A stretch of 64,000 bases of DNA from Clostridia bacterium (GTDB lineage Bacteria; Bacillota; Clostridia; Christensenellales; Aristaeellaceae): positions 1,709-65,708 of the forward strand of contig JAFSNT010000230.1 in NCBI GenBank assembly GCA_017443295.1. The letters are read 5' to 3'. Below the pieces are notes generated by a model. It was given only the letters and a program-made list of their open reading frames with translations, did not search any database and was not told the origin of the DNA. This document shows positions 6,306 through 48,093 of this stretch, one piece after another. The position numbers and the translations under genes are program-made. Within the stretch, counting starts at the first letter, position 1. Each line of letters starts with the position of its first letter.

Positions 6306-6351
6306 GATGATGTCCCTCCTATTTTCTTATTGATAAAAGCGGGTACTGCGA

Positions 6352-6990: not shown

Positions 6991-7275
6991 GTTCGATCTC
7001 CTCCTCACGATATGGATAGACTGGGAACGCCGGAGGCCCCTCCTCCCGGCGCAAACAAATACCCGCCGCACGCAAAACACGCGGATCATGCACCAAGAAA
7101 AGCACACCCTCGCGCGTTCCGTTCGACGGGCTCCTTCGCAAAAGGCAAGCGCTTCCGTTGCCGGAAACACTCATCGGTTTAGGCGGCCCCGTGGGTCATC
7201 CCAAACTCGGAGCATGTTTGAACTGGTTTCATTATAACAGATTAACACAGAATTGAAAAGAGTTTTTCAAAAAAA

Positions 7276-9477: not shown

Positions 9478-10743
9478 ATGAAGAAACTGCTTGCTCTCCT
9501 TCTGTGCCTGATCCTGGCCCTGCCCGTTCTGGCGCTGGCCGAGGAAACCGAAATTACCCTGTGGACCTATCCCATCGGCAAATGGGGCAATGAAGAGACT
9601 GTGAACGAGATCATTGCCAACTTTAACGCCGTGCATCCCGAAATCAAGGTGAAGGTGCAGTATCTGGACTACACCTCCGGCGACGATCAGGTGACCACCG
9701 CCATCGAAGCCCACACCACCCCCGACATCGTGATGGAAGGCCCGGAACGCCTGGTTGCCAACTGGGGCGCCGCCGGCAAGATGCTGGACATCTCCGACCT
9801 GTGGGATGACGCCGTGAAAGCGGACATCATCGCCGCCAGCCCCGCCGTGGAAGCGGCCTGCCGGAATGACGCGGGCATCTATTATGAATATCCCCTGTGC
9901 ATGACCACCCACTGCATGGTCATCAACTACAACGACTTTGAAAAGGCGGGCGCTCTCCAGTACATCGACGAAGCCACCCATACCTGGACCACCGACGGCT
10001 TCCTGAAAGCTTTGGAAGCGCTGAATGCGGCGGGCTTCCAGCCTGCCGGTGTGGTGTACTGCGGCGGCCAGGGCGGCGACCAGGGCACCCGCGCGCTGGT
10101 GACCAACCTGTACTCCGGCCAGTTCACCAATGCTGATCACAGCGCCTACACCATGAACACCGAAGAAAACATCAAGGCCCTGAAGCTGCTCCAGACCCTG
10201 ACCAGCGACGGCCAGCTGGATGCTGATCCCAGTATCGTAGCCAGCGGCGAAATCGCCCTGTTCTGCAACAGCACCACCTCCATCGGCTTCTGCTGGAACG
10301 CTTCCGCCGCCGTGTCCAATAAGGCCAGTCTGGCGGACGATGTGAAGGTGTTCCCCATGGCTTTCCCCTCTGATGACGGCGTGCCCGAGCTGCAGGGCGG
10401 CATTTGGGGCTTCGGCCTGTTCGATAACGGCGACGAGGCCAAGGTGGCCGCCGCCAAGGCTTTCATCAAGTTCGTTTGCGACGATCCTTCCCAGGCCGCT
10501 GCCAGCGTGTACGCTTCCGGCTTCTTCCCCACCCGCGCTTCCCTGGGCGATGTGTACGCGGGCACCGAAATGGCTGAAAACGGCGATTATGCCATCTTCA
10601 TGCCGTACTTGGGCGACTATTATCAGGTCACGCCCAACTGGGCTGCGCAGCGCACCGAATGGTGGAACCTGCTCCAGCGCATCTTCGCGGGCGGCGACGT
10701 GGAAGCCGAAGTGGCTGTGTACGAAGCCAACGCCAATAAATAA
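9478..10743 (+). CDS. ABC transporter extracellular solute-binding protein (carbohydrate, family 1)
   Basis: AAAGGAGG RBS, signal peptide MKKLLALLLCLILALPVLALA, 421 aa. First gene of the SBP-permease-permease-nanA block. Confidence 0.85.
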   Translation: MKKLLALLLCLILALPVLALAEETEITLWTYPIGKWGNEETVNEIIANFNAVHPEIKVKVQYLDYTSGDDQVTTAIEAHTTPDIVMEGPERLVANWGAAGKMLDISDLWDDAVKADIIAASPAVEAACRNDAGIYYEYPLCMTTHCMVINYNDFEKAGALQYIDEATHTWTTDGFLKALEALNAAGFQPAGVVYCGGQGGDQGTRALVTNLYSGQFTNADHSAYTMNTEENIKALKLLQTLTSDGQLDADPSIVASGEIALFCNSTTSIGFCWNASAAVSNKASLADDVKVFPMAFPSDDGVPELQGGIWGFGLFDNGDEAKVAAAKAFIKFVCDDPSQAAASVYASGFFPTRASLGDVYAGTEMAENGDYAIFMPYLGDYYQVTPNWAAQRTEWWNLLQRIFAGGDVEAEVAVYEANANK

Positions 10744-10834
10744 TCTGCTCTGAATCACTGATCCAACCGGGTTTTGCGCCCCCATTCCCTCGCGGGGTGG
10801 GGGCGCTTGATTTCCGAAAGGAGGTTATTCCCCC

Positions 10835-11758
10835 GTGCAAAAAACCGCTGTCGCGCCCATCAGGAAGCCCAGCGTGAGCATGAAGCAGGCCCGCAGGCGG
10901 GAAAACGTCGCCGGGTATCTGTTCATGGCCCCCAGCCTGATCTTCTTCCTGGGCTTCGTGATTTTTCCCATGGTCATGTGTCTGGTGTACAGCTTTACGG
11001 ATTACACCATGTCCAGCTTCAGCTTTTCGGGTCTGAACAACTACAAGACCATGATCCAGGACGCCATTTTCGGCAAAGCCCTGTGGAACACCATCATCCT
11101 GGTGCTAGTCAGCGTGCCCATCACCTGCTTCTTTTCCCTGTGGGCGGCGTCCATTATTTCCAAGCTGCATGACCGCACCACGTCTTTCTTCCGCTGCGTG
11201 TTCTATCTGCCGGTGGTCACGGGTTCCGTGGCCGTGACGGTGGTATGGCGGTGGATCTTCAACCGGTACTACGGCGTGCTGAATTATGTGTGCATGAACC
11301 TGGGGCTGATCTCCCGGAACATGAACTGGTTAGGCGACGCCAGCACCGCCTTAGGCTGCATCATCACCATCCTGCTCACCACCTCCGTGGGCCAGCCCAT
11401 CGTGCTGTACGTGTCGGCCCTCAACAACGTGGATCAATCCCTGGTGGAAGCCGCCAGCGTGGACGGCGCCACCAACATGCAGACCTTCTGGCGCATCAAA
11501 TGGCCCCAGATCATGCCCACCACTCTGTATATCCTGGTCATCACCACCATCAACTCCTTCCAGTGCTTCGCCCTCATCCAGCTATTGACCTCCGGCGGCC
11601 CCAACCACGCCACGGAAACCATCATGTACTATATTTATTACAACGCCTTCAAGCTGCAAAATTACGGCTACGGCAGCGCTATGGGCATCATCCTGGCCCT
11701 GATCATCGCGGCGTTCAGCGCGCTGCAGTTCAAGCTGGCCAAGACCGATAACGGCTGA
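10835..11758 (+). CDS. carbohydrate ABC transporter permease
   Basis: GTG start with AAAGGAGG 9 nt upstream. Multi-TM protein of the MalF/BPD_transp_1 type. Confidence 0.8.
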   Translation: MQKTAVAPIRKPSVSMKQARRRENVAGYLFMAPSLIFFLGFVIFPMVMCLVYSFTDYTMSSFSFSGLNNYKTMIQDAIFGKALWNTIILVLVSVPITCFFSLWAASIISKLHDRTTSFFRCVFYLPVVTGSVAVTVVWRWIFNRYYGVLNYVCMNLGLISRNMNWLGDASTALGCIITILLTTSVGQPIVLYVSALNNVDQSLVEAASVDGATNMQTFWRIKWPQIMPTTLYILVITTINSFQCFALIQLLTSGGPNHATETIMYYIYYNAFKLQNYGYGSAMGIILALIIAAFSALQFKLAKTDNG

Positions 11759-11774
11759 GAAAGGAGGGACGGAC

Positions 11775-12668
11775 ATGAGCAATAATATCGCGGCCATCCA
11801 GAAACGCATGCAGCGCAAGCAGGAAAACACCGGCGGCGACCACAGCGTACACCAGATCACGCCCTATGAAATCGCGGCGCTGGTCGTGCTGATCATCATC
11901 GCCATCCTGTTCATTTTCCCGCTGTACTGGATCATTACCGGCTCCTTCAAGAACGCCCAGGACGTGATCGCCAAGGTACCCGTATGGTTCCCCCTGGCTC
12001 CCACCGTGGACAATTACGCCCGCCTGTTCGCCCGCCCCGCCTTCCGCTGGCTGTGGAACACGGTGTTCCTGTGCGCCATGAGCATGGCGCTCACCTGCGT
12101 TTCCGCCTCCATGGGCGGCTATGCCCTGGCAAAGAAGAAATTCGTGGGCCGGGGGCTGGTGTTCTCCATCTTCGTGTGCGCCATGGCCCTGCCCAAGCAG
12201 GTCATTTTGATCCCGCTGCTCAAGGAAATGGCGTTCCTCAAGCTGCATAACACCCTCTGGGCCGTCATTCTGCCCACCGTGGGCTGGCCCTTCGGCGTGT
12301 TCCTGATGAAGCAGTTCTCCGAAAACATTCCGGAATCCCTGCTGGAAGCCGCCCGCATCGACGGCGCCGGTGAAGCCCGCACCTTCATTGAAATCGTGCT
12401 GCCCATCATCAAACCCGGCATCGGCGCTCTGGCCATCTTCACCTTCATCACCACCTGGAACGATTATTTCCTCCAGCTGATTATGCTCAACGATACCGAC
12501 GTACTCACCATCTCCCTGGGCATCGCCAAGCTGCAAAGCGAGCTGAGCAACGATTTCGGCCTCATCATGGCCGGCGCGGCTTTAGGCTCCATCCCCATCA
12601 TCGTTATCTTCCTCATGTTCCAGAAATTCTTCACCCGCGGCATCACCATGGGCGCGGTGAAGGGGTAA
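11775..12668 (+). CDS. carbohydrate ABC transporter permease
   Basis: AAAGGAGGG RBS. MalG-type permease with the EAA-loop-like segment LLEAARIDGAGEARTF. Confidence 0.85.
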   Translation: MSNNIAAIQKRMQRKQENTGGDHSVHQITPYEIAALVVLIIIAILFIFPLYWIITGSFKNAQDVIAKVPVWFPLAPTVDNYARLFARPAFRWLWNTVFLCAMSMALTCVSASMGGYALAKKKFVGRGLVFSIFVCAMALPKQVILIPLLKEMAFLKLHNTLWAVILPTVGWPFGVFLMKQFSENIPESLLEAARIDGAGEARTFIEIVLPIIKPGIGALAIFTFITTWNDYFLQLIMLNDTDVLTISLGIAKLQSELSNDFGLIMAGAALGSIPIIVIFLMFQKFFTRGITMGAVKG

Positions 12669-23243: not shown

Positions 23244-25844
23244 TTGAGGAGCATAGAAAAAGGACTCGTCTACACCAACGACAAATGCATCGGCTGCAAC
23301 AAGTGCATCCGCGCGTGCAGCTGCATCGGGGCCTGCGTATCCACGGAGCCGGACGAAAACGGTAATTCAAGGATCATGGTGGACGGCAGCCTCTGCGTGG
23401 CCTGCGGCGCCTGCTTTGATATCTGCGAGCATAACGCCCGCGATTTTGTGGACGATACCGAACGGTTCTTTGACGATCTGAAAAAAGGCGAAAAGATTTC
23501 GCTGCTGGTTGCTCCCGCCTTCCCCGCCAATTATCCGGATACCTGCGCCAGGGTTTTGGGCAAGCTGAAAGAATTGGGCGTGAACCGCATCATCAGCGTT
23601 TCCTTCGGCGCGGACATCACCACCTGGGGATATATCAATTACATTCAGCAGCATGATTTTTCAGGCGGCATTTCCCAGCCCTGCCCGGCGGTGGTGGGCT
23701 ATATCGAGCGGTATTTGCCGGAGCTGCTGCCCAAGCTCTTCCCCGTGCAAAGCCCCCTCATGTGCGCCGCTATTTACGCGAAAAAGGAATTAGGCGTCAC
23801 GGATAAGCTGGCCTTTATCAGCCCGTGCATCGCCAAAAAGTTAGAAATCGACGACCCCAACAATCACGGGTACGTCAGCTATAACGTGACCTTCAAGCAC
23901 CTGATGGATTACGCCGAAAAATTCAATTTGTACGGGGAACCCTGCCGGGATGAAATGGAATACGGCCTCGGCTCCATCTATCCCATGCCGGGGGGGCTCA
24001 AGGAAAACGTGCTGTGGCTCCTGGGCCAGGACGCGTTCATCCGTCAGGTGGAGGGCGAAAAAAGGCTGTTCCACTACCTGGAAAAAAACAAGGAGCTGCT
24101 GCGGGACGGAAAGACGCCCTTCCTGTTCGTGGACGCGCTCAACTGCGAAAAGGGCTGCATCTGCGGCACGGGCACCGATATGGCCCTGGCCGTCACCGAT
24201 CATTCGCTGTACCATCTGCACGACATCAAGGAGGCCGTGGAAAAGGATACGGCCGGCAGCGCCTGGTCCCGGAACGCCGCGCCGGAGGAAAGGCTGGCCT
24301 GCCTCAACAAACAGTTTGAACACCTGAACCTGGAAGACTATCTGCGCTCCTATACGGACCGGTCGGCCCAATGCACCCTGCGCATTCCCGATCCCGAAGA
24401 GCTGGAAGCCATCTTCCTGGAAATGAACAAGACCGACGAAGCCTCCCGGCACATCAACTGCTCCTGCTGCGGCTATGACACCTGCACGGAAATGGCGACG
24501 GCGATCCACAACGGCTTCAATCACAAGGAAAACTGCATCCATTACTTGAAGGACATGTATGTGAAGAAGGCCGCCGAAACCGACATCATGACCGGCCTGC
24601 CCAACGCCGCCGGGTTCAGAACCTTCGTCAACAGAATGTGGGCGGCGGGAAAGCTCACGTCCTACAACGCGTTCTACCTGAACGTAAAGAGCTTCGGCCT
24701 GATCAATAAAAAGTACGGAAAGCAGGAGGCGGACCATATCATCATCCGCTTCGCGGAGCTGCTTTTATCGTATACCGACGATGACGAGTGCGCGGGCCGC
24801 CTGTCCGGCGACACGTTCATCCTCATGGTGCATAAAGAAAAGACCGACGCCGTGCTGAAGCTGACCTCCGGCGTGGATATCCGCGCCTCCCTGAACGGCC
24901 AGGAAGAAATGGCGACCCTGCAGGCCATCGCGGGCTGCCTGGATATCGACGACGACGAAATGGACAGCGAGGGGATCATCGGCAGATGCTCCACGGCGCT
25001 GAACGTGGCAAGATACGACAAGCACGCGCCCTATTTATTCTCAACGCCTGAAATGCACAAAAAGGCCATTCATCAAAAGCAAATTCTTTCCGTGTTCGCC
25101 GAGGCTTTGGAAAAGGGCGAGTTCCAGCCCTACTATCAGCCTAAGGTCAACACCAAGACCAAGACCCTGGCCGGCGCGGAAGCCCTGGTGCGCTGGATCA
25201 GAGACGGAAAGACCATCACCCCCGGCGAATTTATTCCGATTCTGGAGACCGGCGACAGCATTTGCATGCTGGATTTCTATATTTTCGAGCAGGTGTGCAA
25301 GGATATCCGCCGGTGGATGGACGCGGGCATCGAGCCGGTGCGCGTGTCGACGAATTTCTCCCGCAAAAACTTGGCCGATCCCGAGTTTTCCCAAAAAATC
25401 AGGAAGATCCTGACCGCCTATAACATCCCCAAGCAGCTGATCGAGGTGGAAATCACCGAAACCATGAGCGAGGAAGACAACGAGCGGCTGAGAAGGTTCA
25501 TCAGCGATATGCACGATTCCTCCATCGCCATGGCCATCGACGACTTTGGAACGGGGTATTCTTCTTTGAATATCCTGCGGGATTTCTCCGCCGACGTGCT
25601 GAAATTGGATAAATCCTTCATTGACGGCCACACGGGCACCAAACGCGACAGCGTGGTGGTTTCCAACGTGGCAAAAATGGCCAACGAGCTGAACATGAGC
25701 GTGATCACCGAGGGCGTGGAGAACTGGGATCAGGTCAACTTCCTGAAAAGCGTCAATATTGATATGGTGCAGGGCTTCCTGTTCGACAAACCCCTCCCGA
25801 AGGGAGATTTTGAACAGCGGCTGAGAAATAAAACGTATGACTGA
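23244..25844 (+). CDS. [FeFe]-hydrogenase-like FeS sensor domain fused to degenerate GGDEF and intact EAL (putative c-di-GMP phosphodiesterase)
   Basis: TTG start 8 nt after GAGGAG. Two CxxCxxCxxxC ferredoxin motifs. Hydrogenase large-subunit-like motifs SQPCPAV, SPCIAKKLE and NCEKGCICGTG. CSCCGYDTC FeS domain. GGDEF slot reads RLSGDTF. EAL-domain motifs AEALVRW, EVEITE, DDFGTGYSSL, KLDKSF, EGVE and QGF. Confidence 0.85.
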   Translation: MRSIEKGLVYTNDKCIGCNKCIRACSCIGACVSTEPDENGNSRIMVDGSLCVACGACFDICEHNARDFVDDTERFFDDLKKGEKISLLVAPAFPANYPDTCARVLGKLKELGVNRIISVSFGADITTWGYINYIQQHDFSGGISQPCPAVVGYIERYLPELLPKLFPVQSPLMCAAIYAKKELGVTDKLAFISPCIAKKLEIDDPNNHGYVSYNVTFKHLMDYAEKFNLYGEPCRDEMEYGLGSIYPMPGGLKENVLWLLGQDAFIRQVEGEKRLFHYLEKNKELLRDGKTPFLFVDALNCEKGCICGTGTDMALAVTDHSLYHLHDIKEAVEKDTAGSAWSRNAAPEERLACLNKQFEHLNLEDYLRSYTDRSAQCTLRIPDPEELEAIFLEMNKTDEASRHINCSCCGYDTCTEMATAIHNGFNHKENCIHYLKDMYVKKAAETDIMTGLPNAAGFRTFVNRMWAAGKLTSYNAFYLNVKSFGLINKKYGKQEADHIIIRFAELLLSYTDDDECAGRLSGDTFILMVHKEKTDAVLKLTSGVDIRASLNGQEEMATLQAIAGCLDIDDDEMDSEGIIGRCSTALNVARYDKHAPYLFSTPEMHKKAIHQKQILSVFAEALEKGEFQPYYQPKVNTKTKTLAGAEALVRWIRDGKTITPGEFIPILETGDSICMLDFYIFEQVCKDIRRWMDAGIEPVRVSTNFSRKNLADPEFSQKIRKILTAYNIPKQLIEVEITETMSEEDNERLRRFISDMHDSSIAMAIDDFGTGYSSLNILRDFSADVLKLDKSFIDGHTGTKRDSVVVSNVAKMANELNMSVITEGVENWDQVNFLKSVNIDMVQGFLFDKPLPKGDFEQRLRNKTYD

Positions 25845-25857
25845 TTGAGGAAAAAGC

Positions 25858-27360
25858 ATGGACGGCCGAATGAAGATCAGAGATACGCTGCGGCACGTGA
25901 GCGTGAAATCCATTGTATTGGCGATCATCGTGATTCTGTTCGCCAATATCACCGCCGCCTTTATTGGAAACAGCTTTTACGCGACGGAGAAAGAAACCCT
26001 GCGGCAGCAATGCGAGCTGAACGCCAAGGATTCCGCCAGGGAATACGACCATATTCTTCTGACGCGGGTGAACATCGTCACGCTGGTGGGGCGCACGGTG
26101 GATAGCATGCTGTCTTCCGGCACGGGCAGCAAAAAGATCGAAAAGTACCTGGTGGAGCAGACGAACAACATCGCCGCCACCCTGGATCCCACCACCACCG
26201 GCCTGTACGGCTGGGTGGGCGGCGTGTATCTCGACGGCGCGGGCTGGGTGCCTGAAGACGATTATGTGCCCACCGAACGGCCCTGGTATATCCAGACCAT
26301 GGCATCCGACCAGGAAATCACCTTTGTGGAACCCTACCTGGATTTGCAGACGTATACGGTGATGATGACTGTGTCCGATCTTTTGAGCGACGGGCAAAGC
26401 GTGATCGCCATGAACGTGAGCCTCGACCCCTTGCAGGCCATTGTGGAGCGCATCGCCGCCGCCACGGAGGGCGGCCAGGCCCTCGTGCTGGACGGCAGCG
26501 GCATCGTGGTGGCCCATTCCGATAAGAATCAGCTGGGCCGGAACTATCTGAACGAACCGGAGAGCCTCGGCGGCGCCGTGGCACGCAAAATCCTTGCGGA
26601 CGGGGAAAAGCAGTTTGATCTCAACGCCAAAGAGGGAAATTTCTCCGTTTATGTGGAACAGCTGGAAGGCAGCTGGTACAGCGTCAGCCTGATCAACGCC
26701 GACGTTTGGTACCGCCCCCTGCGATACACCATTCTTGCGTTTTCCGCCATTGTGGCGCTGGTCAGTCTTTTCCTGGTGGCGGTGTTTCTCCGCCTCAGCG
26801 CCAAAAACGTGGCGCTGCAGGCGCTTCATACGCGCATCGACCAGGAGGAGAAGCGGGGCGAGGCCCTGCAGGCGCTGTCCGAAACGGACCGCATGACCGG
26901 CCTGCTGGACCGCGTCAGCGGCCAAAACAAGGTGAACGAGCTGCTGGCCTCCGGCAGCGGCGGCATGTTCCTGGAGCTGGATATCGACCATTTCAAAACC
27001 ATCAACGATACCTACGGGCATCAGACGGGCGATACCGTCATCATCGCCGTGGCCGATTCCATGCGCGGCATTTTCCGTTCCAACGATTTATGCATGCGGC
27101 TGGGCGGCGACGAGTTCGGCGTTTTCGCGGTGGGCATTGTGAAGCGGGAAATGGCCGAGGCCATTATCCGCCGGCTGTTTGAAAGGCTCGAAAAAACGGA
27201 GATACCGGAGTTGCGCGGGGAAAAAATCGCCGTCAGCGTGGGCGTAGCCCTGCACGCGGGAGAAAACGCGGCCTCCTTTGACGCGCTCTACGCCCGGGCG
27301 GACACCGCTATGTATGCAAGCAAAAAGATACCCGGCAACAGCATGACCTTCAGCGGCTGA
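25858..27360 (+). CDS. membrane diguanylate cyclase with extracytoplasmic Cache-like sensor domain
   Basis: TM1, then a ~270-aa periplasmic-type domain, then TM2, then GGDEF with RLGGDEF and an I-site RSND five residues upstream. Confidence 0.85.
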   Translation: MDGRMKIRDTLRHVSVKSIVLAIIVILFANITAAFIGNSFYATEKETLRQQCELNAKDSAREYDHILLTRVNIVTLVGRTVDSMLSSGTGSKKIEKYLVEQTNNIAATLDPTTTGLYGWVGGVYLDGAGWVPEDDYVPTERPWYIQTMASDQEITFVEPYLDLQTYTVMMTVSDLLSDGQSVIAMNVSLDPLQAIVERIAAATEGGQALVLDGSGIVVAHSDKNQLGRNYLNEPESLGGAVARKILADGEKQFDLNAKEGNFSVYVEQLEGSWYSVSLINADVWYRPLRYTILAFSAIVALVSLFLVAVFLRLSAKNVALQALHTRIDQEEKRGEALQALSETDRMTGLLDRVSGQNKVNELLASGSGGMFLELDIDHFKTINDTYGHQTGDTVIIAVADSMRGIFRSNDLCMRLGGDEFGVFAVGIVKREMAEAIIRRLFERLEKTEIPELRGEKIAVSVGVALHAGENAASFDALYARADTAMYASKKIPGNSMTFSG

Positions 27361-27376
27361 CCGAAAGGAGACGCCC

Positions 27377-28606
27377 ATGCAGTATAAAACCGTGACCATC
27401 GTGATCCTGTCCGCCGTATTCCTGTACAACATGCTGCTCCGGCTGATCGAATACCGGTCGGCCCAAAATCCCATTCCCCTGAACGTGCTGGACGTGTACG
27501 ACCTGGACACCTACAAAAAGTGGCGGGCCTATCACGGGGAAAAGTGCCGCTTAGGGGCGTTCAGCGCCCTGGCGGGATTCATGGTGGATCTCATTCTGAT
27601 CCTGCCCAACCTCTACGCCGCCTTTGCCCGTCTGTTTCCCGATACGGCCTTTTGGCAGATGCTGGCCGTGATCCTGTTATCCATGGCGGGCCTCGTGACG
27701 GAGCTGCCCATCGAATACTACGACACCATGGTCATCGAGGAAAAGTACGGCTTCAACCGTTCCACCAAGAAAACCTTCTGGCTGGATCAATTGAAGGGTC
27801 TGCTGATCAATCTGGCCCTGGTGATCGCGGTAAGCTCCCTGCTGCTGGGGGCGCACACCTGGCTTGGGGACTGGCTGATCGTGGTCTTCGCCGGGGCCAT
27901 GACGCTTTTGACCCTGGGTATTTCCTTCCTCTATCCCTTTTTCAGCCGGATCTTCAACAAGTTCACGCCCCTGGAGGACGGGGAGCTGAAGGACAAGCTC
28001 ACCGGCCTGCTGGAAAAGCACGGCTTCAAGGTGCGCGCCATTCAGGTAATGGACGCCTCCCGGCGCTCCACCAAGTCCAACGCCTATTTTACGGGCTTCG
28101 GCAAAATGAAAACCATCGTGCTGTACGACAATATGGTGCAGGCCATGACGACGGATGAAATCTGCGCGGTGTTCGCCCATGAAATGGGCCACGGCCTGCA
28201 TAAGGACACCCTGAAAAGCCAAATCTTTTCCTTTGTGCAAATGCTTTTCATAGGCGCGCTGGCCTGGCTGACCCTGCGCACGCCGGAAGTTTTCACCGCC
28301 TTCGGCTTTCCGGGTGTGAATTACGGCTTTGCCTTCTTCCTGATCACCAGCGTGGAATTTGCCCTGATCGCCCCGCTCTTCGGCCTGCTGGTGAACGGGC
28401 TTTCCCGGCGGGCGGAATACCGGGCGGACGCCCAGGCCGTTCAGGAGGGCTACGGCGAAGCGCTGATTTCGGGCCTGAAAAAGCTGAGGCGGGAAAACTT
28501 TGGGGAATTGGCCCCCTCTCCCCTGCTGGTGAAGCTGGAATATTCCCATCCCACCCTGAGCCAGCGCATTGCGGCCATTGAAAAATTGGGAGGTAAAGCG
28601 GAATGA
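27377..28606 (+). CDS. M48-family (Ste24/HtpX-like) membrane metalloprotease
   Basis: AAAGGAG RBS, multi-TM N-terminal half, HEMGH zinc motif (VFAHEMGHGLHKD). Confidence 0.8.
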   Translation: MQYKTVTIVILSAVFLYNMLLRLIEYRSAQNPIPLNVLDVYDLDTYKKWRAYHGEKCRLGAFSALAGFMVDLILILPNLYAAFARLFPDTAFWQMLAVILLSMAGLVTELPIEYYDTMVIEEKYGFNRSTKKTFWLDQLKGLLINLALVIAVSSLLLGAHTWLGDWLIVVFAGAMTLLTLGISFLYPFFSRIFNKFTPLEDGELKDKLTGLLEKHGFKVRAIQVMDASRRSTKSNAYFTGFGKMKTIVLYDNMVQAMTTDEICAVFAHEMGHGLHKDTLKSQIFSFVQMLFIGALAWLTLRTPEVFTAFGFPGVNYGFAFFLITSVEFALIAPLFGLLVNGLSRRAEYRADAQAVQEGYGEALISGLKKLRRENFGELAPSPLLVKLEYSHPTLSQRIAAIEKLGGKAE

Positions 28607-29541
28607 CCGTGGATTACAAGCTTTTGAACGAGCAAATGGAAGCCCTGGCCCAAGCGGAGGGCTGGTACGTGTCCCTGTTCGCCAACGCCTCGGCCCTGCT
28701 GTGGGAAATGCTGCCCGATATCAACTGGGCCGGGTTTTATACTGTGGAAGGCCCCGATCTGGTGCTGGGTCCCTTCCACGGCAAAGTGGCCTGCATTCGC
28801 ATCCCCCGGGAAAAGGGCGTATGCGGCGCGGCCCTGCGGGAAGGACGCACCATGCTGGTGCCGGACGTACACGCTTTCCCCGGCCACATCGCCTGCGACA
28901 GCGCATCCCGTTCCGAACTCGTGATTCCCCTGCGGGATGGGCGGGGCCGGGTGGCCGCCGTGCTGGACATGGACAGCCCCATGCTCAACCGTTTTTCCGA
29001 TCAGGACCGGCAAGGGCTGGAAGCCTTCGCCCATATCATCGAAAAAGCCATGAAAGGACTGTCCCCCATGGAAAAGACCGTTTATTTGGCGGGCGGCTGC
29101 TTCTGGGGCTGCCAGAAATATTTTGACCTGATGGACGGCGTGATCGAAACGGAGGTGGGCTACGCCAACGGCGAAGCCGAAAACCCCACCTACGAGCAGG
29201 TGAAGCACGGGGCGGGCCACGCGGAAACCGTTCGGGTAGTATATGATCCCGCTAAGCTTCCCCTGCGGGAGCTGCTGGAACGCTATTTCCAGGTGATCGA
29301 CCCCACCGCCGTCAATCACCAGGGGGAGGATTTCGGCGTTCAGTACCGCACCGGCATTTATTTCGCCGACCCCGCCGACGCCCCCACCGTCGCCGCCGCC
29401 CTTCACGACCTGGCCCGCCGCTATGACAAGCCCCTGGCGGTGGAAAACCTGCCCTTGCAGAACTTCTATTCGGCGGAGGAATACCACCAGAAATACTTGG
29501 AAAAGCATCCGGGCGGCTACTGCCACATCCATTTTGACTGA
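28603..29541 (+). CDS. msrA: fusion of GAF-domain free methionine-(R)-sulfoxide reductase (fRMsr/YebR-like) and peptide methionine-(S)-sulfoxide reductase MsrA
   Basis: ATGA overlap with the M48 gene. The N-terminal half is a YebR-like GAF domain (..GFYTVEGPDLVLGPFHGKVACIRIPREKGVCG..). The C-terminal half is MsrA with GGCFWGCQ. Confidence 0.8.
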   Translation: MTVDYKLLNEQMEALAQAEGWYVSLFANASALLWEMLPDINWAGFYTVEGPDLVLGPFHGKVACIRIPREKGVCGAALREGRTMLVPDVHAFPGHIACDSASRSELVIPLRDGRGRVAAVLDMDSPMLNRFSDQDRQGLEAFAHIIEKAMKGLSPMEKTVYLAGGCFWGCQKYFDLMDGVIETEVGYANGEAENPTYEQVKHGAGHAETVRVVYDPAKLPLRELLERYFQVIDPTAVNHQGEDFGVQYRTGIYFADPADAPTVAAALHDLARRYDKPLAVENLPLQNFYSAEEYHQKYLEKHPGGYCHIHFD

Positions 29542-29553
29542 TTTCTTTCTTGG

Positions 29554-29582
29554 TTGACAAACGGCCGCGGACAAAATATAAT
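29554..29582 (+). promoter_or_regulatory. sigma-A type promoter upstream of the third c-di-GMP gene
   Basis: TTGACA, 17 nt, TATAAT. Confidence 0.55.
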
Positions 29583-29655
29583 GATTCCGTCGGGGTTTAA
29601 TTCGTTTTTTCAATATGCAAGCAGCGCATCCCACGCAGCGAGGGAGGTTACGCCC

Positions 29656-31056
29656 ATGAAGCACCACAAGAGGCCCCTGAACCGCAGCATCACCGTGGGA
29701 TGCGTTCTGTTTATCCTCGCCCTGTGCGTGCTGCTGAGCTTCGCCAATCTGACGATGTATAAAAACTACGTTTATGAGGATTACCGCAATTATATCGACG
29801 ATATCCTGAACTATACCCTGTCCGAAATCGACGGGGACGATCTGAAAGCCTGCATCGAAACGGGCGAGGAAAGCGAGCGGTACAAGAAAACCCTGCTTTT
29901 CATGGATCATATGATGGATCATTTCGACGATATCCATTATTTCTACGCCATCCTGCCCCTGAATACCGAGGAAACGGGCAACGTGATGAGCGTGCTTTCG
30001 GCGGAGCGGTATCAAGACCGGTATATCGACACGGAAGGAAATCTCTATTTGGGCTGGATCTCGGACGACGAATTCGACGCGGCCACCGCCGCCCAGTTTT
30101 TTGAGATCATGAAGGGCAAGGGCATCGTTTACTTTGAGGAAGCCACGGAATGGGGCATTGATTATACCGGCGCCGTGCCCATCCGGGACGCCAAGGGAAA
30201 CAGCGTGGCCGTGCTGGCGGTGGATATTGATATTTCCTTCATCAACGGCATGGTTTGGCAGTACGCCGCCGTGAATATCCTGGTGATCCTGCTGGCGGGC
30301 GCGGTGTTCATCGCCATTTTCCTGTTCTGGTCCCGCAGGAACATCACCCAGCCCATCCTGCGCCTGGAGGAAAGCGCCGTGGGCTTTGCGGACCGCAGCC
30401 ACGGCCAGCGGGACGTGAACGCCCTGACCTTCGACGCGCCTCCCATGAAAACGGACAACGAAATCAAATCCCTGTCCGACGCGGTGGTGAAAATGACCGA
30501 GGACATGCGGGATTACGTGACCGACATCATCACCGCCGAGAAAAAAGCCGCCAACATGCAGGAGCTGGCCAACCGGGACGCCCTCACCGGCATCCGCAAC
30601 AAAACGGCCTACGACAACGAAATGAAGCGCGTGGCCGTGAAGTTAGAGGACGGGATTGCCCAGGTGGGCCTGGCCATCGTGGATCTGAACTTCCTGAAAA
30701 AAATCAACGATACTTACGGCCACGACATGGGCAATATCGCCATCCGCAAGCTCAGCCGCATGGTGTGCGTGATCTTCGACCACTCCCCCGTGTTCCGCAT
30801 CGGCGGCGACGAATTCGCCGTGATCCTGCGCGGCACCGATTTCGACCATTACGGCGAGCTGGAAGCCCGCTTTAACGCGGAAATGGCCGCCCTGGCCCGG
30901 GATGATTCCCTGCCGCCCTGGGAAAAAGTGTCGGCGGCCATCGGCGCGGCGTTCTATGACCCGGAGCTGGACGACGGCGTGGACAGTCTGTTTAAGCGGG
31001 CAGACCATGTGATGTACGACCGCAAGAAGGAAATGAAAGCAACCCGAAAAGATTGA
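29656..31056 (+). CDS. membrane diguanylate cyclase (two TM helices flanking a sensor domain, GGDEF)
   Basis: ORF trimmed to the ATG at 29656 (AGGGAGG RBS). MKHHKRPLNRSITVGCVLFILALCVLL. RIGGDEF active site with no RxxD I-site. Confidence 0.85.
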   Translation: MKHHKRPLNRSITVGCVLFILALCVLLSFANLTMYKNYVYEDYRNYIDDILNYTLSEIDGDDLKACIETGEESERYKKTLLFMDHMMDHFDDIHYFYAILPLNTEETGNVMSVLSAERYQDRYIDTEGNLYLGWISDDEFDAATAAQFFEIMKGKGIVYFEEATEWGIDYTGAVPIRDAKGNSVAVLAVDIDISFINGMVWQYAAVNILVILLAGAVFIAIFLFWSRRNITQPILRLEESAVGFADRSHGQRDVNALTFDAPPMKTDNEIKSLSDAVVKMTEDMRDYVTDIITAEKKAANMQELANRDALTGIRNKTAYDNEMKRVAVKLEDGIAQVGLAIVDLNFLKKINDTYGHDMGNIAIRKLSRMVCVIFDHSPVFRIGGDEFAVILRGTDFDHYGELEARFNAEMAALARDDSLPPWEKVSAAIGAAFYDPELDDGVDSLFKRADHVMYDRKKEMKATRKD

Positions 31057-32445: not shown

Positions 32446-33951
32446 TTACTGCAAATCGGTGCGGATCACGTATACGGTGACGGCCTGCATGCCCTCGGGG
32501 CGGAGATCGTAGCCCCCGTTCCGGGCCTGATCCCGGGTCTGCTCGTACAATTCAAGAATATGAAGCGCGTCGCGCTGCACGTAGGGCAGGGCCAGGGCGG
32601 CCAGCTGCTTTTCCGCGGTCTGCACGGTGGATTTCACCTTGGCGGTGCCGTTCTTTTGCAGCTTTTCCGCGTCCTTTTGCAGCGCCGCCGCGCTGTCCTT
32701 GAGGGCGATGAGACCGGCGTTCAGGGCGTCGGCGCTCTGGGCCGCCTGGGCCGCGGATTCGGTATAGGCTTTCAGGCTGTTCACGAGCTGCACGGTCTGC
32801 TCCAACTGGGCTTTCAGGGCGGCGAGCTTGGCGGTTGTGTTTTCATCCTGGCCCTGGGCGGCATTGTCCAGCGCCTGGGCGTAGTTTTCCGCCGTCAGCT
32901 CGGACACGGTGACGCCGAAAGCGGCCAATTGCGTTTGGGTAGACTGGAAAGCGGCGGAAAGCAGGGCATTGGCCTGGGCGTTCAGGGCGTCGCCGCTGGT
33001 CTGCAAGCCGTTCAGGGCGGTTTGCAGCGTTCCGGCGTTGGTCTTAGCTTCCCCGGCGCGGTTTGTCAATTCCTCCGCGCTGCCCTTGAGGGCCTGGGCG
33101 CTTTCGTCCAGCTTGACCACATTATGGTTAAAGTCGTTCACCTGGCCCAGCACGATATTGGTCTTCAGGTTTTTCAGGCCCGGCTGCATGGGCACGTCCT
33201 CCCCGTTTTTCAGGGCGGTGAGCAGGGATTCGGCCAGGGTCAGGGTGTCCCGCAGATCAATGGGCAGCCTTTCGTCGATTTCCTGGGCGGCCAGCCGGAT
33301 GGGGTCGGCGGAAATCAGGGTCATCATCCAGCTCAGATCGGCGTGATCGGCGTGGAAGGACACGGTGAAGTGATCCGGCAGGCCCAAATCCGCGTCCACC
33401 CCCGGCGCGGCGTACCCCACCAGCACCCGCTGGCCCGCTTCGGACAGGATCATGGCGTTTTCCGCATGGATATTCGTCATGCCTGCGCCGTCCAGGGGCA
33501 GCAGGGTCACGGCCAGGGCGGGCAGGGCGCTTACGGAACGGTAGGAAACGGTGAGTACCGCTTCGCCGGTCTTGTTTTTCAATTCGGCGGCGGTGACCGT
33601 TTCTCCTTCCAGGGTCAGGGAGACTGTCGGCAGGATGGCCGGAGTCTGATCGGAGGTTCCCTGGTAAACGATATCGTTCCCCTGGGCCTGCCAGATCAGG
33701 GCGTCCCCGTCCCGGGTGAAGGCTTCGTCGCCGCTCATGTTTTCAATGCCGGTCAGCAGGGAAACGTCGGCGATTTCCGAAAGCCCCTCCTTGTTTTCCA
33801 GGCGGACGCTGTCGGTCAGGCTCCGGATTTCCCCGTCGGGTCCGGCCACGATATACACCCGTTCATGCTTGATGTTTTCCCCTAAGGCGGGCGCGCAGCA
33901 GCCCATCAGAAACGCGGCGGCCAGCAGCGCGGCAAGCAGCTTTTTCATCAT
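32446..33951 (-). CDS. lipoprotein with YhgE/Pip-like coiled-coil (xxxLxxG heptad) region
   Basis: Signal peptide with lipobox FLMGC. Central Ala/Gln/Leu-rich repeats (..AGTLQTALNGLQTSGDALNAQANALL..). Downstream of the MMPL gene on the same strand. Confidence 0.6.
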   Translation of the reverse strand: MMKKLLAALLAAAFLMGCCAPALGENIKHERVYIVAGPDGEIRSLTDSVRLENKEGLSEIADVSLLTGIENMSGDEAFTRDGDALIWQAQGNDIVYQGTSDQTPAILPTVSLTLEGETVTAAELKNKTGEAVLTVSYRSVSALPALAVTLLPLDGAGMTNIHAENAMILSEAGQRVLVGYAAPGVDADLGLPDHFTVSFHADHADLSWMMTLISADPIRLAAQEIDERLPIDLRDTLTLAESLLTALKNGEDVPMQPGLKNLKTNIVLGQVNDFNHNVVKLDESAQALKGSAEELTNRAGEAKTNAGTLQTALNGLQTSGDALNAQANALLSAAFQSTQTQLAAFGVTVSELTAENYAQALDNAAQGQDENTTAKLAALKAQLEQTVQLVNSLKAYTESAAQAAQSADALNAGLIALKDSAAALQKDAEKLQKNGTAKVKSTVQTAEKQLAALALPYVQRDALHILELYEQTRDQARNGGYDLRPEGMQAVTVYVIRTDLQ

Positions 33952-39117: not shown

Positions 39118-40181
39118 GCTTCCCCCACCTCCTTCACGGTCAGGCCCTGTTCCTTCAAATAGGAAATTACCTGATTTTTCACCACGGGATCGTCCGGCGA
39201 TTCGATCAGCATTTGGCCGTAGGGCTTGCCGTTGATGGGCTTGATGTCGGCGGACAGGATGTTCACGTCCACCCCGCAGTTTTTCACCAGCCCGGCGATG
39301 ATAGGCATGCCCTCCTGGCCGCCCTCAAACACGATGCGCAGGGCGGGCACGTCGGAAACGGCGTCGTCCTCCTGGGCGGGCAGGATGCCGAAGAGCCGCT
39401 TGCCCGCCGCGCTGCGGGTGTGAACGAACACGTCGTCCACCGTGCCTTCCTCGGCGATGCGGCCCCCGTCTAAGATCGCCACCCGGTTGCAGATTTGCCG
39501 GATGACCGCCATTTCATGGGTGATCAGCACCACGGTGATGCCCATGTTCCTGTTGATGTCCTGGAGCAGGGCTAAGATGGATTGGGTGGTCATGGGGTCC
39601 AGGGCGCTGGTGGCCTCGTCGCACAGCAGCACTTCGGGATCGGAGGCCAGGGCACGGGCGATGGCCACGCGCTGGCGCTGGCCGCCGGACAATTGGATGG
39701 GATAAGCGTCGGCCTTGCTTTCCAGCTCCACCAGGGAGAGAAGGGCCTTAACCCGGGTATTGGCTTTGGCCTTGGGCACTCCCGCCAAATCCAGGGGGTA
39801 ACGCACGTTCTGGGCCACGGTTTTCTGCATCAGCAGATTGAAGGACTGGAAGATCATGCTCACCTTGCGGCGCATAGCCATGAGCTGTTTGCCGTTCATG
39901 GTCAGGATATTCTGGCCGTCGATGAGGATTTCGCCGTCGGTGGGCGTGTCCAGCCGGTTCAGGCACCGGATCAGGGTGCTTTTCCCCGCGCCGCTCATGC
40001 CGATGATGCCGTAAATGGAGCCGCGCTGGATGTTCAGGTCGATACCGTCCAGGGCCACGACCTCGCCCCCGGGCACGGCGTACACCTTGCGCAGGCCCTT
40101 TACCTGAATCAGGGGCTTACAGGGGGCTTCCGCCTCCAAGATTTCCGGGACTTCCTGGGTATTCGCTTCGGACAAATGCAT
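39114..40181 (-). CDS. metN: methionine ABC transporter ATP-binding protein with C-terminal NIL domain
   Basis: Walker A GMSGAGKST, signature LSGGQRQR, NIL-like C-terminus. Confidence 0.9.
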   Translation of the reverse strand: MHLSEANTQEVPEILEAEAPCKPLIQVKGLRKVYAVPGGEVVALDGIDLNIQRGSIYGIIGMSGAGKSTLIRCLNRLDTPTDGEILIDGQNILTMNGKQLMAMRRKVSMIFQSFNLLMQKTVAQNVRYPLDLAGVPKAKANTRVKALLSLVELESKADAYPIQLSGGQRQRVAIARALASDPEVLLCDEATSALDPMTTQSILALLQDINRNMGITVVLITHEMAVIRQICNRVAILDGGRIAEEGTVDDVFVHTRSAAGKRLFGILPAQEDDAVSDVPALRIVFEGGQEGMPIIAGLVKNCGVDVNILSADIKPINGKPYGQMLIESPDDPVVKNQVISYLKEQGLTVKEVGEA

Positions 40182-40247
40182 GCATTCCTTTCGGATTCTG
40201 TGTTCCTCTCCGGCCAGGGCACGTCTGCCCCGGCGCGGCCCGCATCC

Positions 40248-40280
40248 AGAAAAACCCGCTCCGCGCAGCTGCGAAGCGGG
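40248..40280 (-). terminator. leader terminator (attenuator) inside the metNIQ 5' UTR
   Basis: On the minus strand: cccgcttcgc agctgc gcggagcggg, a 10-bp stem followed by TTTTTCT, about 70 nt upstream of the metN ATG. Confidence 0.6.
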
Positions 40281-40413
40281 CTTAACGAACGAAATCGGGC
40301 GTCAAGCGGCGCAAAGCAAACAGCGCGTGGGGCAGTGCCCGCGCAGGGACATTCGCATCATACACCGTTCCATGGGGCACGCTCCTTTCCGGCTGTCGCC
40401 GCTGACTGGGTCT

Positions 40414-40443
40414 ATTATAAGGGATGGGGGCTTTTTGTGTCAA
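40414..40443 (-). promoter_or_regulatory. promoter of the metNIQ operon
   Basis: On the minus strand: TTGACA, 18 nt, TATAAT. Predicts a leader of about 225 nt. Confidence 0.6.
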
Positions 40444-40504
40444 GGGCTTGAAGCTGTACTATAATTGTATTACCAGCTATAGATTTTAGCTATATGTTTT
40501 AGCG

Positions 40505-40518
40505 CACAGAGTTCAGAT
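40505..40518. repeat. truncated heptad hairpin (left-arm end of E flavour only)
   Basis: cacagagttcagat plus the loop start atttatatggtc resembles 22389-22412. No right arm nearby. Lies at the left edge of the low-GC segment. Confidence 0.55.
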
Positions 40519-40569
40519 TTATATGGTCGATCAATTTGAGCATTTTCGCGTCACAAAACCCGCATGGGC

Positions 40570-41235
40570 TTATTCTTCCATCAACTCATGCGAAGCCAGC
40601 TTTGCTTCACCCGCGTCAATTTGGGAAGTAATGCGTTCCAAATGGGCAAGGTTCGCATCCGAGCAAAATGGGTCAATGGATTCTTTTAGAACTTTTCGCA
40701 TGACCGCCTGCCCGTTTTCCCTCGCCACCTCAACAAATCCTGCTTTTTGATAAAGGCGAACAGGTCCTTGATAATCGAAGTCATTCCGTTTATCAGAAAG
40801 TTTAGGGTATCCTTCAACAGCCGCGTATCCCTTTGCTTTCGCGTCCTTGCAAACGCTGTCGATCAACGCGGAAGCGACGCCCATACCTCGATATGCGGGC
40901 GCGATTTCAAAGCAAACAATGGAAACGGTTTTTCCGCAGGGATTCTTCCTGGCGAATTCCGGAACGAACCCGGCATAGCTTTCCATATCCGCCGCGTTGC
41001 ACCATCCAACGGGCAGCTTTCCGTCATAAGCCAAATAGCCTTGAATCTTGTTCCTGTTCAGCATGTCCACGGCGTATTTCCGCAGCGTAGCTTTTACGCC
41101 AAAGGTTTGAAACTCGCTGACCATCCGCTTGATTTCTTCTTCATCCTGATTGGGGGACGTGCAATAGCATGGCCCGTTGGGATTATCATCCGTAAACGCG
41201 CGATGATCGAAAAAATCCAGATAATCCGCATACAA
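40570..41235 (-). CDS. GNAT-family N-acetyltransferase (low-GC gene)
   Basis: 221 aa with a GNAT core (..FEIAPAYRGMGVASALI..). Clearly more AT-rich than the flanking genes. Confidence 0.7.
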   Translation of the reverse strand: MYADYLDFFDHRAFTDDNPNGPCYCTSPNQDEEEIKRMVSEFQTFGVKATLRKYAVDMLNRNKIQGYLAYDGKLPVGWCNAADMESYAGFVPEFARKNPCGKTVSIVCFEIAPAYRGMGVASALIDSVCKDAKAKGYAAVEGYPKLSDKRNDFDYQGPVRLYQKAGFVEVARENGQAVMRKVLKESIDPFCSDANLAHLERITSQIDAGEAKLASHELMEE

Positions 41236-41798
41236 TGCCGGGGGTCAAAGGTTTGATAACGATTTCTTTCACGAACGTATGCCCTCCGAAGTAAATTCCG
41301 CTTCATCCGACAGCATTTTAGCACATCTTCCCCCGCCCCGCAAGGCGCCGCAAAAAAAGCATGGGAACGGTTTTCTGTGCATTGCCGCAAGCACGGATGG
41401 CAGTATAGAAAACCGCCTTCTATCCATGCGAAAAAAAAATTCATTCTCCCATGCTACAAAAAAAGCGCCACTGGCTGAACAGTGACGCAGCTTTCAAATA
41501 CTTGCAATTATAGGTCGTTGTTTCTCCGTTGATTAGATTCTTCTTGTATGGTAATATCTTTTCCAATCAAAGTTTGAAATTCAGCCTTACTGAAAAGCCT
41601 ATACCCGATATGCAAGAATGGATTGCTCGTAGAACTATAAACGGAAATATGCATGTCAATCAGCAAATAGCAATCATCAAAATGCACAGGGGACGGTTCT
41701 CTGTGTTGACCACCGTACTTGCGGCAATGCACATAGAACCGTCCCCTGTGTTCCTTTTCAAGATTCTACACAACAATAACTGAAAAAGAATAAGGAGC

Positions 41799-42251
41799 TT
41801 ATGGCTGGGCTAACTTTCTTGTTCCTGCATTATCACCTGTTGCAAGATAGCCTTCCGCGAATACACCAACAGATTCAGGGAGACTGAATTGTCCTGTAGC
41901 ATTTATAACAGTCCATAATCCGTTTATTATTCCCCATATAGGTACTGCTACATATGTCGCAACCGTAATTGCTGCCCCAGTTAGCTTTCCTGTCCAGTTT
42001 CCTTTTCCGGCGGTAATGGCGACTTTGCCGTCACCATTGTTCTTGATAGTCACATAACACTTAGTGTCCCCACCCAAAAGACCATTGTAAAATCCCACTT
42101 CCCTGGTATTTGCGTTAAGAACATGAATCCCTTTTTCTGGGTCATATTCATGTGCTACTGACATGCCTTTTTTATCAAAAAACCCAACAATTGCATCGCA
42201 TAATTCGTTTTCGGTATGTCCGTTCAATTCTAATGTCCTGTCCATGCTCAA
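41799..42251 (-). CDS. hypothetical protein with C-terminal hydrophobic segment (low-GC gene)
   Basis: 150-aa ORF, no family recognised. Probable TM region LTGAAITVATYVAVPIWGIINGLWTVI. Divergent from the XRE regulator. Confidence 0.5.
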   Translation of the reverse strand: MSMDRTLELNGHTENELCDAIVGFFDKKGMSVAHEYDPEKGIHVLNANTREVGFYNGLLGGDTKCYVTIKNNGDGKVAITAGKGNWTGKLTGAAITVATYVAVPIWGIINGLWTVINATGQFSLPESVGVFAEGYLATGDNAGTRKLAQP

Positions 42252-42598
42252 TACCTCCAGTCCTTTTTTTGAATAAATACGTATGTCATTTCACGTAACT
42301 GTTTGAAGTTCATTCTGACATGTTAAAAATAGCAGAAAGAAATTCAGTTTTCCAACTCTGTATCCTATCTTTGTACGATCCTGTAATCAAGAAAATCGAG
42401 AACAATCACCTTCCCTTTTTTATCATCCTGAATCGTATTGATGAATTTTCCTTTTACATTTTTCTCTCCCTCCCTAACTGCTACTTGTCATGTAATTCGT
42501 CTTCTCTAAATTATCACATTTCGTGATTTTTGTCAATATCCCGTTTTGTGATAAATATAATGAAATAGATTACTGAATGTCGGAAGGGGGAAATTGCC

Positions 42599-42829
42599 TT
42601 GCGTCTACGCGACCTTCGGGAAGATCACGACTTGACGCAGACAGAACTGGCAAGGCAACTTCATATTCGACAAAGCACGTATTCCCAATACGAAAACGGG
42701 CAACGACAGATTCCTTTAGAAGCGTTGATAAAACTTGCGCTTTACTATCACACATCAGTTGATTATATCCTGGAATTAACAGATGAGGTTACTCCCTATC
42801 CATTGTCAAAGCGATACATAAAAGTATGA
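42599..42829 (+). CDS. XRE-family helix-turn-helix transcriptional regulator
   Basis: TTG start after GGAAGGGGG. LRDLREDHDLTQTELARQLHIRQSTYSQYENGQRQIPLEALIKLALYY is a Cro/C1 HTH. Confidence 0.8.
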   Translation: MRLRDLREDHDLTQTELARQLHIRQSTYSQYENGQRQIPLEALIKLALYYHTSVDYILELTDEVTPYPLSKRYIKV

Positions 42830-42851
42830 ATCATTAAAACTATCTGCTTAT

Positions 42852-48087: not shown

Positions 48088-48093
48088 AAAGAC

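Follow-up and report, generated by a model that had tools for sequence, protein, structure and literature searches.

A Group C2-type sensory [FeFe]-hydrogenase cassette fused to a predicted cyclic di-GMP phosphodiesterase in a Clostridia bacterium

In the microbiomes of gut and rumen, putative sensory [FeFe]-hydrogenases of groups C and D occur in abundance and at high expression. To our knowledge, nobody has shown a signalling target for any of them. HydDB distinguishes three putative sensory [FeFe] classes, C1 (histidine-kinase-linked), C2 (chemotactic) and C3 (phosphatase-linked), and its only class linked to cyclic di-GMP (c-di-GMP) is Group 2c of the [NiFe]-hydrogenases (PMC5037454). TmHydS of Thermotoga maritima and TamHydS of Thermoanaerobacter mathranii both carry a functional H-cluster and are reactive towards H2 (PMC8163306, PMC13104023). 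TamHydS shows an H2-induced structural change, and a 2026 study of it states that its interaction partners and signalling route remain unknown (PMC13104023). Here we describe a gene at 23244..25844 (+) of a 64,000-nucleotide stretch of contig JAFSNT010000230.1 from a Clostridia bacterium (assembly GCA_017443295.1), which was analysed as a whole and is called the window below. We are confident that its product joins a sensory-hydrogenase cassette of the Group C2 type to a c-di-GMP phosphodiesterase. In a full-text literature search, no paper was found that describes GGDEF or EAL domains coupled to a sensor of the [FeFe]-hydrogenase type, which agrees with the remark in an earlier, sequence-only reading of this DNA that no such coupling had been characterised. 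The c-di-GMP output is thus new for a sensor class that is known but functionally unproven.

The open reading frame (ORF) was confirmed at exactly these coordinates. It starts with TTG and has 866 codons for 866 residues; the G+C content of its third codon positions (GC3) is 0.78 and its codon-position GC pattern is like that of the neighbouring real genes. The ORF, its Pfam matches and orthologues of the same length mark it as a complete gene for a soluble protein. Ten such full-length orthologues (83-98% identity) all come from metagenome-assembled genomes (MAGs) of ruminant-gut Clostridia; the closest, L006, is 98% identical and syntenic, in a red-deer rumen MAG labelled Christensenellaceae. 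The PolC encoded in the window is consistent with Firmicutes. The fusion architecture is found more widely, in more than 100 90%-identity clusters (48-89% identity). No membrane segment was found in the protein (maximum 19-residue Kyte-Doolittle mean 1.44), and it is expected to be cytoplasmic because it lacks a hydrophobic stretch long enough for a membrane span. The Pfam scan gives, from the N-terminus, a 2x[4Fe-4S] ferredoxin domain (Fer4), an [FeFe]-hydrogenase H-domain (Fe_hyd_lg_C), a Cx2Cx4Cx16C FeS domain, a degenerate GGDEF domain and an EAL domain. This is the order the sequence-only reading had proposed, and every motif it had quoted (SQPCP, SPCIAKK, NCEKGC, CSCCGYDTC, RLSGDTF and the EAL motifs) was found. 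The Pfam and motif matches are far beyond chance.

The ferredoxin domain (aa 10-66; 23271..23441, +; Pfam Fer4/Fer4_7) holds two CxxCxxCxxxC motifs, C15/18/21/25 and C51/54/57/61, and all eight cysteines are at least 90% conserved in an alignment of 150 diverse representatives, roughly 26-60% identical to the query. The H-domain that follows (aa 85-311; 23496..24176, +) is matched by PF02906 over aa 85-308 with an E-value of 1.5e-27 and 97 bits against a cutoff of 22. Its residues were mapped by a phmmer search of the N-terminal 440 residues against PDB sequences, which aligns TmHydA, DdH and CpI. C147, C195, C301 and C305 pair with C179, C234, C378 and C382 of DdH, the equivalents of C300, C355, C499 and C503 of CpI, which ligate the [4Fe-4S] part of the H-cluster and include the bridging cysteine. 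The four H-cluster cysteines that had been read as conserved are therefore at equivalent positions. The residues around them also align: S193-P194-C195-x-x-K198-x-x-E201 with M232-P233-C234-x-x-K237-x-x-E240 of DdH (M353, C355, K358 and E361 of CpI), L299-x-C301-x-x-G-C305 with M376-x-C378-x-x-G-C382 (CpI M497, C499 and C503), and A90-P91-A92 with the APA/APS motif; the counterpart of S170-P171 in the DdH alignment is the SP within VKSPQQ. The pocket of the [2Fe] subsite is kept, as P91, S170-P171, K198 and E201 correspond to P231, S323/P324, K358 and E361 of CpI. Across the same 150 representatives, all 16 cluster cysteines and P91, S170, P171, P194, K198, E201, G304 and G308 are conserved in at least 90%.

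What is not kept are the residues that mark the catalytic groups A and B. P146 takes the place of the proton-relay cysteine of TSCCP (C299 of CpI, residue 178 of DdH), a replacement that the sequence-only reading had rightly recognised, and the two framing methionines are replaced as well, Met353 by S193 and Met497 by L299. In line with this, scores with the hydrogenase models of NCBIfam fall well short of the cutoffs (130 vs 450 for B1, 89 vs 406 for A). The C-terminal accessory FeS domain (aa 404-432; 24453..24539, +) reaches 22.6 bits with PF04060, just under the cutoff of 23, and its homologues score 25-34 bits. Its motif is an exact Cx2Cx4Cx16C (C406/C409/C414/C431, the first three within CSCCGYDTC) and the spacing is identical in 257 of 257 family proteins. 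The same accessory-cluster motif is the defining one of the M2e/M2f sensory enzymes and is described for TamHydS and TmHydS (PMC8163306); with the N-terminal 2x[4Fe-4S] domain, it gives the protein the architecture of groups C and D. An AlphaFold model of aa 1-440 was made because a Foldseek search with the full-length model returned GGDEF-EAL matches only. It has a predicted template-modelling score (pTM) of 0.73 and a per-residue confidence (pLDDT) of about 80-95 in the H-domain, the ferredoxin part being low. The top-50 PDB matches of this sensor-only model are all genuine [FeFe]-hydrogenases, with query template-modelling scores (TMq) of 0.5-0.6.

Eukaryotic Nar1/NARF proteins keep the H-cluster cysteines without a [2Fe] subsite, and conservation of these cysteines alone is therefore not decisive. 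In the present protein the pocket residues are conserved too, and among the HydDB-classified cores compared, the nearest relatives of the sensor are bacterial Group C2 sensors. With a core spanning motifs L1 to L3, BLASTP scores are highest against C2 (112 and 85.5 bits, 39% and 35% identity), followed by C3 (76 bits), B (45-48), C1 (40-43) and A3 (42). The class test was a nearest-neighbour comparison with eight HydDB-classified cores (supplement of PMC6776011) and involved no phylogeny; HydDB itself classifies by k-nearest neighbours. The C2 cores of this rumen survey read ISQPCP...ISPC...LNCEKGC, then NCGACGYKTC...NCHHY, and this is also the signature of the sensor-cassette family; the C1 cores read ISS(Y/A)CP...I(S/T)PC and resemble TamHydS, and the C3 core keeps TTCCP (PMC6776011). 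By its nearest neighbours in this small reference set, the sensor appears to belong in or next to HydDB Group C2 and not in catalytic A or B, in agreement with the sequence-only reading, which had likened the replaced relay position to that of sensory or non-catalytic hydrogenase-like proteins. The association of C2 with chemotaxis was not found: in place of the signalling domain of a methyl-accepting chemotaxis protein (MCP) the output is GGDEF-EAL, although MCPsignal is present in close relatives of the cassette (62% identity). Assignment to group D/M2e by way of TamHydS was considered and rejected. The identity is about 28%, over aa 39-205 and to an approximate TamHydS sequence (an OCR-damaged, i.e., imperfectly machine-read, coding sequence from a supplement), and of all the C groups it is the C1 cores that have the lowest scores.

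The output half begins with the GGDEF domain (aa 444-590; 24573..25013, +; Pfam E-value 2.6e-14). Its active site is degenerate: the signature reads SGDTF, the first metal-binding aspartate is an asparagine (YLNVKSF) and there is no RxxD I-site. N488, G492, D497 and R519 are invariant in 50 homologues, and N488 and D497 are guanine-binding positions; the domain is catalytically dead but probably still binds GTP. In the EAL domain (aa 619-850; 25098..25793, +; PF00563, E-value 5.8e-58, 196 bits) the motifs are complete (EALVRW, N704, EVEITE, DDFGTGYSS, K787, EGVE and QGF), and E646, L648, R650, N704, E734, E736, E739, D766, D767, K787, E823, E826 and Q843 are invariant in the same 50 homologues. 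The sequence-only reading, which had called the GGDEF domain degenerate and the EAL domain catalytically complete, was correct on both. Judged by its sequence, the EAL domain is catalytically competent and predicted to hydrolyse c-di-GMP to pGpG. In Foldseek searches with the full-length model, aa 440-866 resemble the GGDEF-EAL tandems of MorA, PA0575, RbdA and the O2 sensor DosP, and the EAL domain matches isolated active EAL domains with a TM-score of about 0.9.

The two halves are joined by a predicted helix (AlphaFold2 secondary structure; aa 432-450, 24537..24593, +), which leads from C431, the final cluster ligand, straight to the start motif of the GGDEF domain, DIMTGLPN. Of 130 GGDEF fusions, 118 have 15 or 16 residues between the equivalent cysteine and DxLTGLxN; these include many close homologues, and diverse representatives likewise show 15. 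In the kinase fusions, the last cysteine is 31, 34, 38, 42 or 45 residues from the phospho-acceptor histidine, i.e., the spacing changes in steps of three to four residues, as an uninterrupted coiled coil would predict. As the linker is constrained in length and the steps are heptad-like, the model and the alignments support a mechanical transmission through a rigid helix.

The sensor half is not peculiar to this gene. An exhaustive HMMER search with aa 1-440 gave 3,112 cluster representatives, 710 of them below 1e-30. In the best 150, which are proteins of 400-1,700 aa, a single uninterrupted match covers all of the 438-residue block. Outputs were surveyed by jackhmmer/BLAST clustering and Pfam scans of representatives, which yielded 129 proteins with a complete cassette. 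The outputs are HisKA-HATPase, often with REC, PAS or Hpt (36/129), the MCP signalling domain (35/129), GGDEF+EAL (23/129), GGDEF alone (15/129), the HD-GYP-type HD_5 (2/129) and PAS-SpoIIE(-HATPase_c_2) of the PP2C type (2/129, plus one SpoIIE-only singleton); four of the 129 have no output, and the scanned singletons include PAS-only, Hpt with HATPase_c, PAS-HAMP-MCP and the SpoIIE-only protein just mentioned. Even the nearest cassettes differ in what they carry (kinase-REC at 67% identity, MCP at 62%, HD-GYP at 56%). As the same block joins so many output types, the cassette behaves as a portable sensor domain, and the spread over kinases, MCPs, c-di-GMP enzymes and PP2C is typical of one. 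By these domain assignments the cassette is widespread and modular, and the GGDEF-EAL fusion is one output variant and not a one-off.

The two c-di-GMP-linked kinds of fusion differ in the integrity of the GGDEF site. Cassette-GGDEF proteins without EAL almost all retain GGDEF or GGEEF and are therefore predicted cyclases. In cassette-GGDEF-EAL proteins the site is mostly degenerate (SGDAF, SGDNF, SEDNF and others), with seven that retain GGDEF, and these proteins are therefore predicted phosphodiesterases. Since site integrity divides in this way with the presence of EAL, the same input appears to be wired to both the making and the breaking of c-di-GMP. The c-di-GMP-linked form also crosses phyla, as there is a version in the spirochaete Treponema: a cluster of Treponema sp. 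proteins has the form cassette-GGDEF-EAL-PAS (1,140 aa), with an extra C-terminal PAS domain, and is annotated only 'EAL domain-containing protein'. Public records label the family just so, or as 'diguanylate cyclase'. In a Lachnospiraceae genome, locus L073 has two paralogous cassette-MCP genes 3 kb apart, at 5011-6939 (-) and 9998-11932 (+), and L074 shows the same arrangement. One L073 paralogue is without the SQPCP form of the L1 motif; it is 44% identical and closer to the C2 reference of Ruminococcus flavefaciens.

We lean, with some reserve, towards the view that the protein is a cytoplasmic one-component transducer in which the C2-type input module (aa 1-438) controls the EAL domain, the signal being H2 (or a redox state linked to it) at a mature H-cluster. 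The module would comprise a pair of [4Fe-4S] clusters of the ferredoxin type, an H-cluster site that lacks the catalytic proton relay and the accessory C-terminal [4Fe-4S] cluster. H2 would bind and be slowly oxidised at the H-cluster, causing a redox and conformational change of the H-domain. This change would pass through the C-terminal FeS domain and the short rigid helix into the GGDEF-EAL tandem and alter EAL activity and, with it, cellular c-di-GMP, which typically controls the choice between attachment and motility. Put more broadly, the best-supported reading is the one that the sequence-only reading had suggested, namely that H2, redox state or O2 may be read out as c-di-GMP hydrolysis. 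We infer that the [2Fe] subsite is installed and that H2 is the signal; the direction of the regulation and the physiology downstream of it are likewise putative.

Several observations weigh against H2 sensing. Neither a hydrogenase gene nor one for HydE, HydF or HydG is present in the window, and within 10 kb on either side of 84 related loci no hydrogenase or ORF with HydF/HydG motifs was found; the second H-domain ORFs seen there, in three loci, are paralogous sensors only. HydS-type sensors adjoin group A hydrogenase genes, whereas the cassette loci here do not. The literature search found no Group C2 enzyme reported as biochemically characterised. Position 299 is proline and not, as in TamHydS, alanine; and H2 does not reduce the C-terminal cluster of TamHydS (PMC13104023), for which reason the C-terminal relay would be no simple redox switch. 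The genes downstream for an M48 protease and a GAF-MsrA protein hint at sensing of oxidants, in a synteny that is not conserved. Finally, the cultured Hungate strains Lachnospiraceae XBB2008, AB2028, AD3010 and V9D3004 (L021, L024, L028 and L061) have cassette-histidine-kinase fusions with ISQPCP, which the HydDB-based rumen survey did not assign to Group C; it lists XBB2008 without any hydrogenase and AB2028 with [NiFe] 4e only; AD3010 and V9D3004 have [NiFe] 4e and [FeFe] group B (PMC6776011). As XBB2008 and AB2028 have no catalytic [FeFe] call, the maturases may be absent in some hosts. The cassette itself was overlooked by the survey, since it reaches only about 1e-29 against C2 references and the first pass demanded 1e-50; with thresholds this strict the survey's zeros are soft.

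The lack of hydrogenase structural and maturase genes in the window and near the 84 loci, the two strains, the proline at the relay position and the repair genes downstream, together with the Nar1/NARF precedent, all favour a module that holds [4Fe-4S] clusters only, with no [2Fe], and senses redox state, O2 or oxidants, for example through reduction of the ferredoxin pool via the N-terminal clusters or through damage of a cluster by O2. The readout would still be c-di-GMP hydrolysis. We regard this main rival as possible but on balance unlikely. Very divergent members keep, at 90% or more, both the GCxxG loop and the pocket residues that contact the [2Fe] subsite in group A enzymes, and an empty pocket would hardly account for this; those related sensory enzymes for which tests exist do bind [2Fe] (PMC8163306); synteny with the MsrA and protease genes is limited to relatives of at least 94% identity; and the survey counts are soft for the reason given. 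A wider form of the same idea, that the C2-type cassette as such is a maturase-independent, [2Fe]-free bacterial counterpart of Nar1, providing kinases, chemoreceptors and c-di-GMP enzymes with a general Fe-S input for redox, O2 or small molecules in gut anaerobes that include species free of [FeFe]-hydrogenase, seems to us doubtful. We give very little credence to a fusion without sensory function, i.e., a low-activity catalytic hydrogenase or a constitutive phosphodiesterase with structural or electron-supplying Fe-S clusters. TamHydS and TmHydS do retain measurable H2 turnover (PMC8163306) and an N-terminal ferredoxin is the normal electron path of catalytic enzymes, but signalling outputs of at least seven kinds are attached to the cassette, which stands alone in only 4 of 129 proteins, the entry residue of the proton pathway is gone, the output linker is constrained in length and whether the GGDEF site is intact goes with whether EAL is present. 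It is just as improbable that the EAL domain is a non-catalytic c-di-GMP receptor that signals by protein-protein contacts, like LapD or FimX: these dual-domain proteins are among the Foldseek matches and the GGDEF domain is degenerate as in LapD, but all the catalytic residues are present and invariant in the 50 homologues, unlike in LapD and FimX, and the best structural matches are the active enzymes MorA, PA0575, DosP and PdeA.

The sensor gene is followed on the same strand by genes for a dCache-GGDEF protein, the M48 protease, the GAF-MsrA protein and a second GGDEF protein. The first of these (25858..27360, +) encodes a membrane-bound predicted diguanylate cyclase with an intact RLGGDEF and starts 13 bp 3' of the sensor gene, with no terminator between. 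It is present in the 98% identical relative L006 and absent in the 94% identical L007 and in more distant orthologues; as it is kept in the one and missing in the other, it was gained or lost recently. The cyclase is a possible local partner of the sensor, specific to the lineage. A conserved operon was considered and rejected: synteny holds only in L006, and in orthologues of 79-86% identity the gene stands alone among unrelated genes. The synteny of the MsrA and protease genes is confined to relatives of at least 94% identity. The M48 membrane protease gene (27377-28606) overlaps the GAF-MsrA gene by 4 bp, which suggests a co-translated pair for repair of oxidative damage; the latter (28603-29541, +) fuses a GAF domain resembling free-methionine sulfoxide reductase to MsrA peptide methionine sulfoxide reductase.

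In all, three genes with GGDEF domains lie within 8 kb (23244-31056), two of which encode membrane-anchored predicted cyclases with intact GGDEF. At the called start of the last of them (29554-31056) there is a perfect sigma-70 consensus (29554-29582, +; TTGACA, 17 nt, TATAAT; 12/12); the gene probably begins some 100 bp further downstream and probably has a strong promoter of its own. It should be noted that a general scan for promoters and terminators gave counts no higher than in shuffled sequence, and that no c-di-GMP riboswitches, other regulatory RNAs or tRNAs were found in the window. Elsewhere in the window, an aldehyde:ferredoxin oxidoreductase gene (AFOR_N/AFOR_C, 731 aa) adjoins one for a polyferredoxin-like 4Fe-4S protein (272 aa) at 4110-7170 (-), a pair that represents ferredoxin-linked redox metabolism in the same organism. 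A 501-aa ORF at 32446-33951 (-) has a normal coding signature and no Pfam match, and is 84-88% conserved in L006 and L007. Two stretches, 40000-43000 and 47500-49300, have a GC content of 0.49-0.51 vs about 0.58 and flank the PolC gene. Their ORFs, for example those at 40570-41235 (a GNAT acetyltransferase), 41799-42251, 47510-47971 and 48625-49227, are without the usual high GC3, and both stretches may be horizontally acquired or non-coding.

The fusion protein is valuable above all because it opens the H2-sensor hypothesis to a direct test. Because the sensor is fused to an enzyme whose conversion of c-di-GMP to pGpG is easily measured, the question whether H2 acts as a switch becomes an in vitro experiment with a single protein. 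Sister proteins with an intact cyclase, a kinase or a chemoreceptor on the same cassette provide built-in comparisons, and XBB2008, AB2028, AD3010 and V9D3004 are good test cases for maturase dependence. The partial pressure of H2 governs the balance of rumen fermentation and the syntrophy with methanogens; if H2 is the signal, this pressure would be linked to the decision between attachment and motility. The analysis also shows that standard screens for hydrogenases overlook an entire branch of Group C2, that of the Clostridia/Lachnospiraceae.

In closing, we compare the 866-aa protein with the systems it most resembles. The C2 references of Treponema bryantii (WP_022931679.1) and Ruminococcus flavefaciens (WP_028517519.1) have the same L1/L2/L3 motifs (ISQPCP, ISPC, LNCxxGC) and share its C-terminal Cx2Cx4Cx16C domain, with 43% identity across the domain. 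C2 is defined by MCP outputs, whereas the protein described here has a degenerate GGDEF and an EAL domain instead. TamHydS (group D/M2e) and TmHydS (group C/M2f) have the same cluster layout and likewise miss the C299 relay; TamHydS shares exactly the changes of M353 to serine and M497 to leucine and differs at position 299, which is alanine there and proline here (PMC8163306, PMC11803613). TamHydS has no fused output and TmHydS only PAS, whereas here an enzymatic output is on the same polypeptide. On the output side, the nearest precedent is DosP/PdeO of E. coli, a haem-PAS O2 sensor, in which a cofactor-bearing domain that senses gas or redox state likewise precedes a degenerate GGDEF domain and an EAL phosphodiesterase that is active. 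DosP is among the top structural matches of the C-terminal half, with NCBIfam similarity below cutoff. The sensors themselves are unrelated (haem-PAS vs an Fe-S/H-cluster domain), and the ligand of DosP is O2. In PA0575 and RbdA (PA0861) of Pseudomonas aeruginosa and CC3396/PdeA of Caulobacter, a degenerate GGDEF domain binds GTP and activates the EAL domain. These are the closest solved structures to aa 440-866, the degenerate GGDEF of PA0575 being GTP-bound, but their sensors are PAS or periplasmic and, unlike here, none has Fe-S clusters. The closest in concept is [NiFe] Group 2c, 'diguanylate cyclase-linked (putative)', which embodies the same idea of a hydrogenase-type H2 sensor acting through c-di-GMP (PMC5037454). 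That class is uncharacterised, its metal site is unrelated in evolution, and its link is to a cyclase, with no phosphodiesterase fusion of the kind described here.

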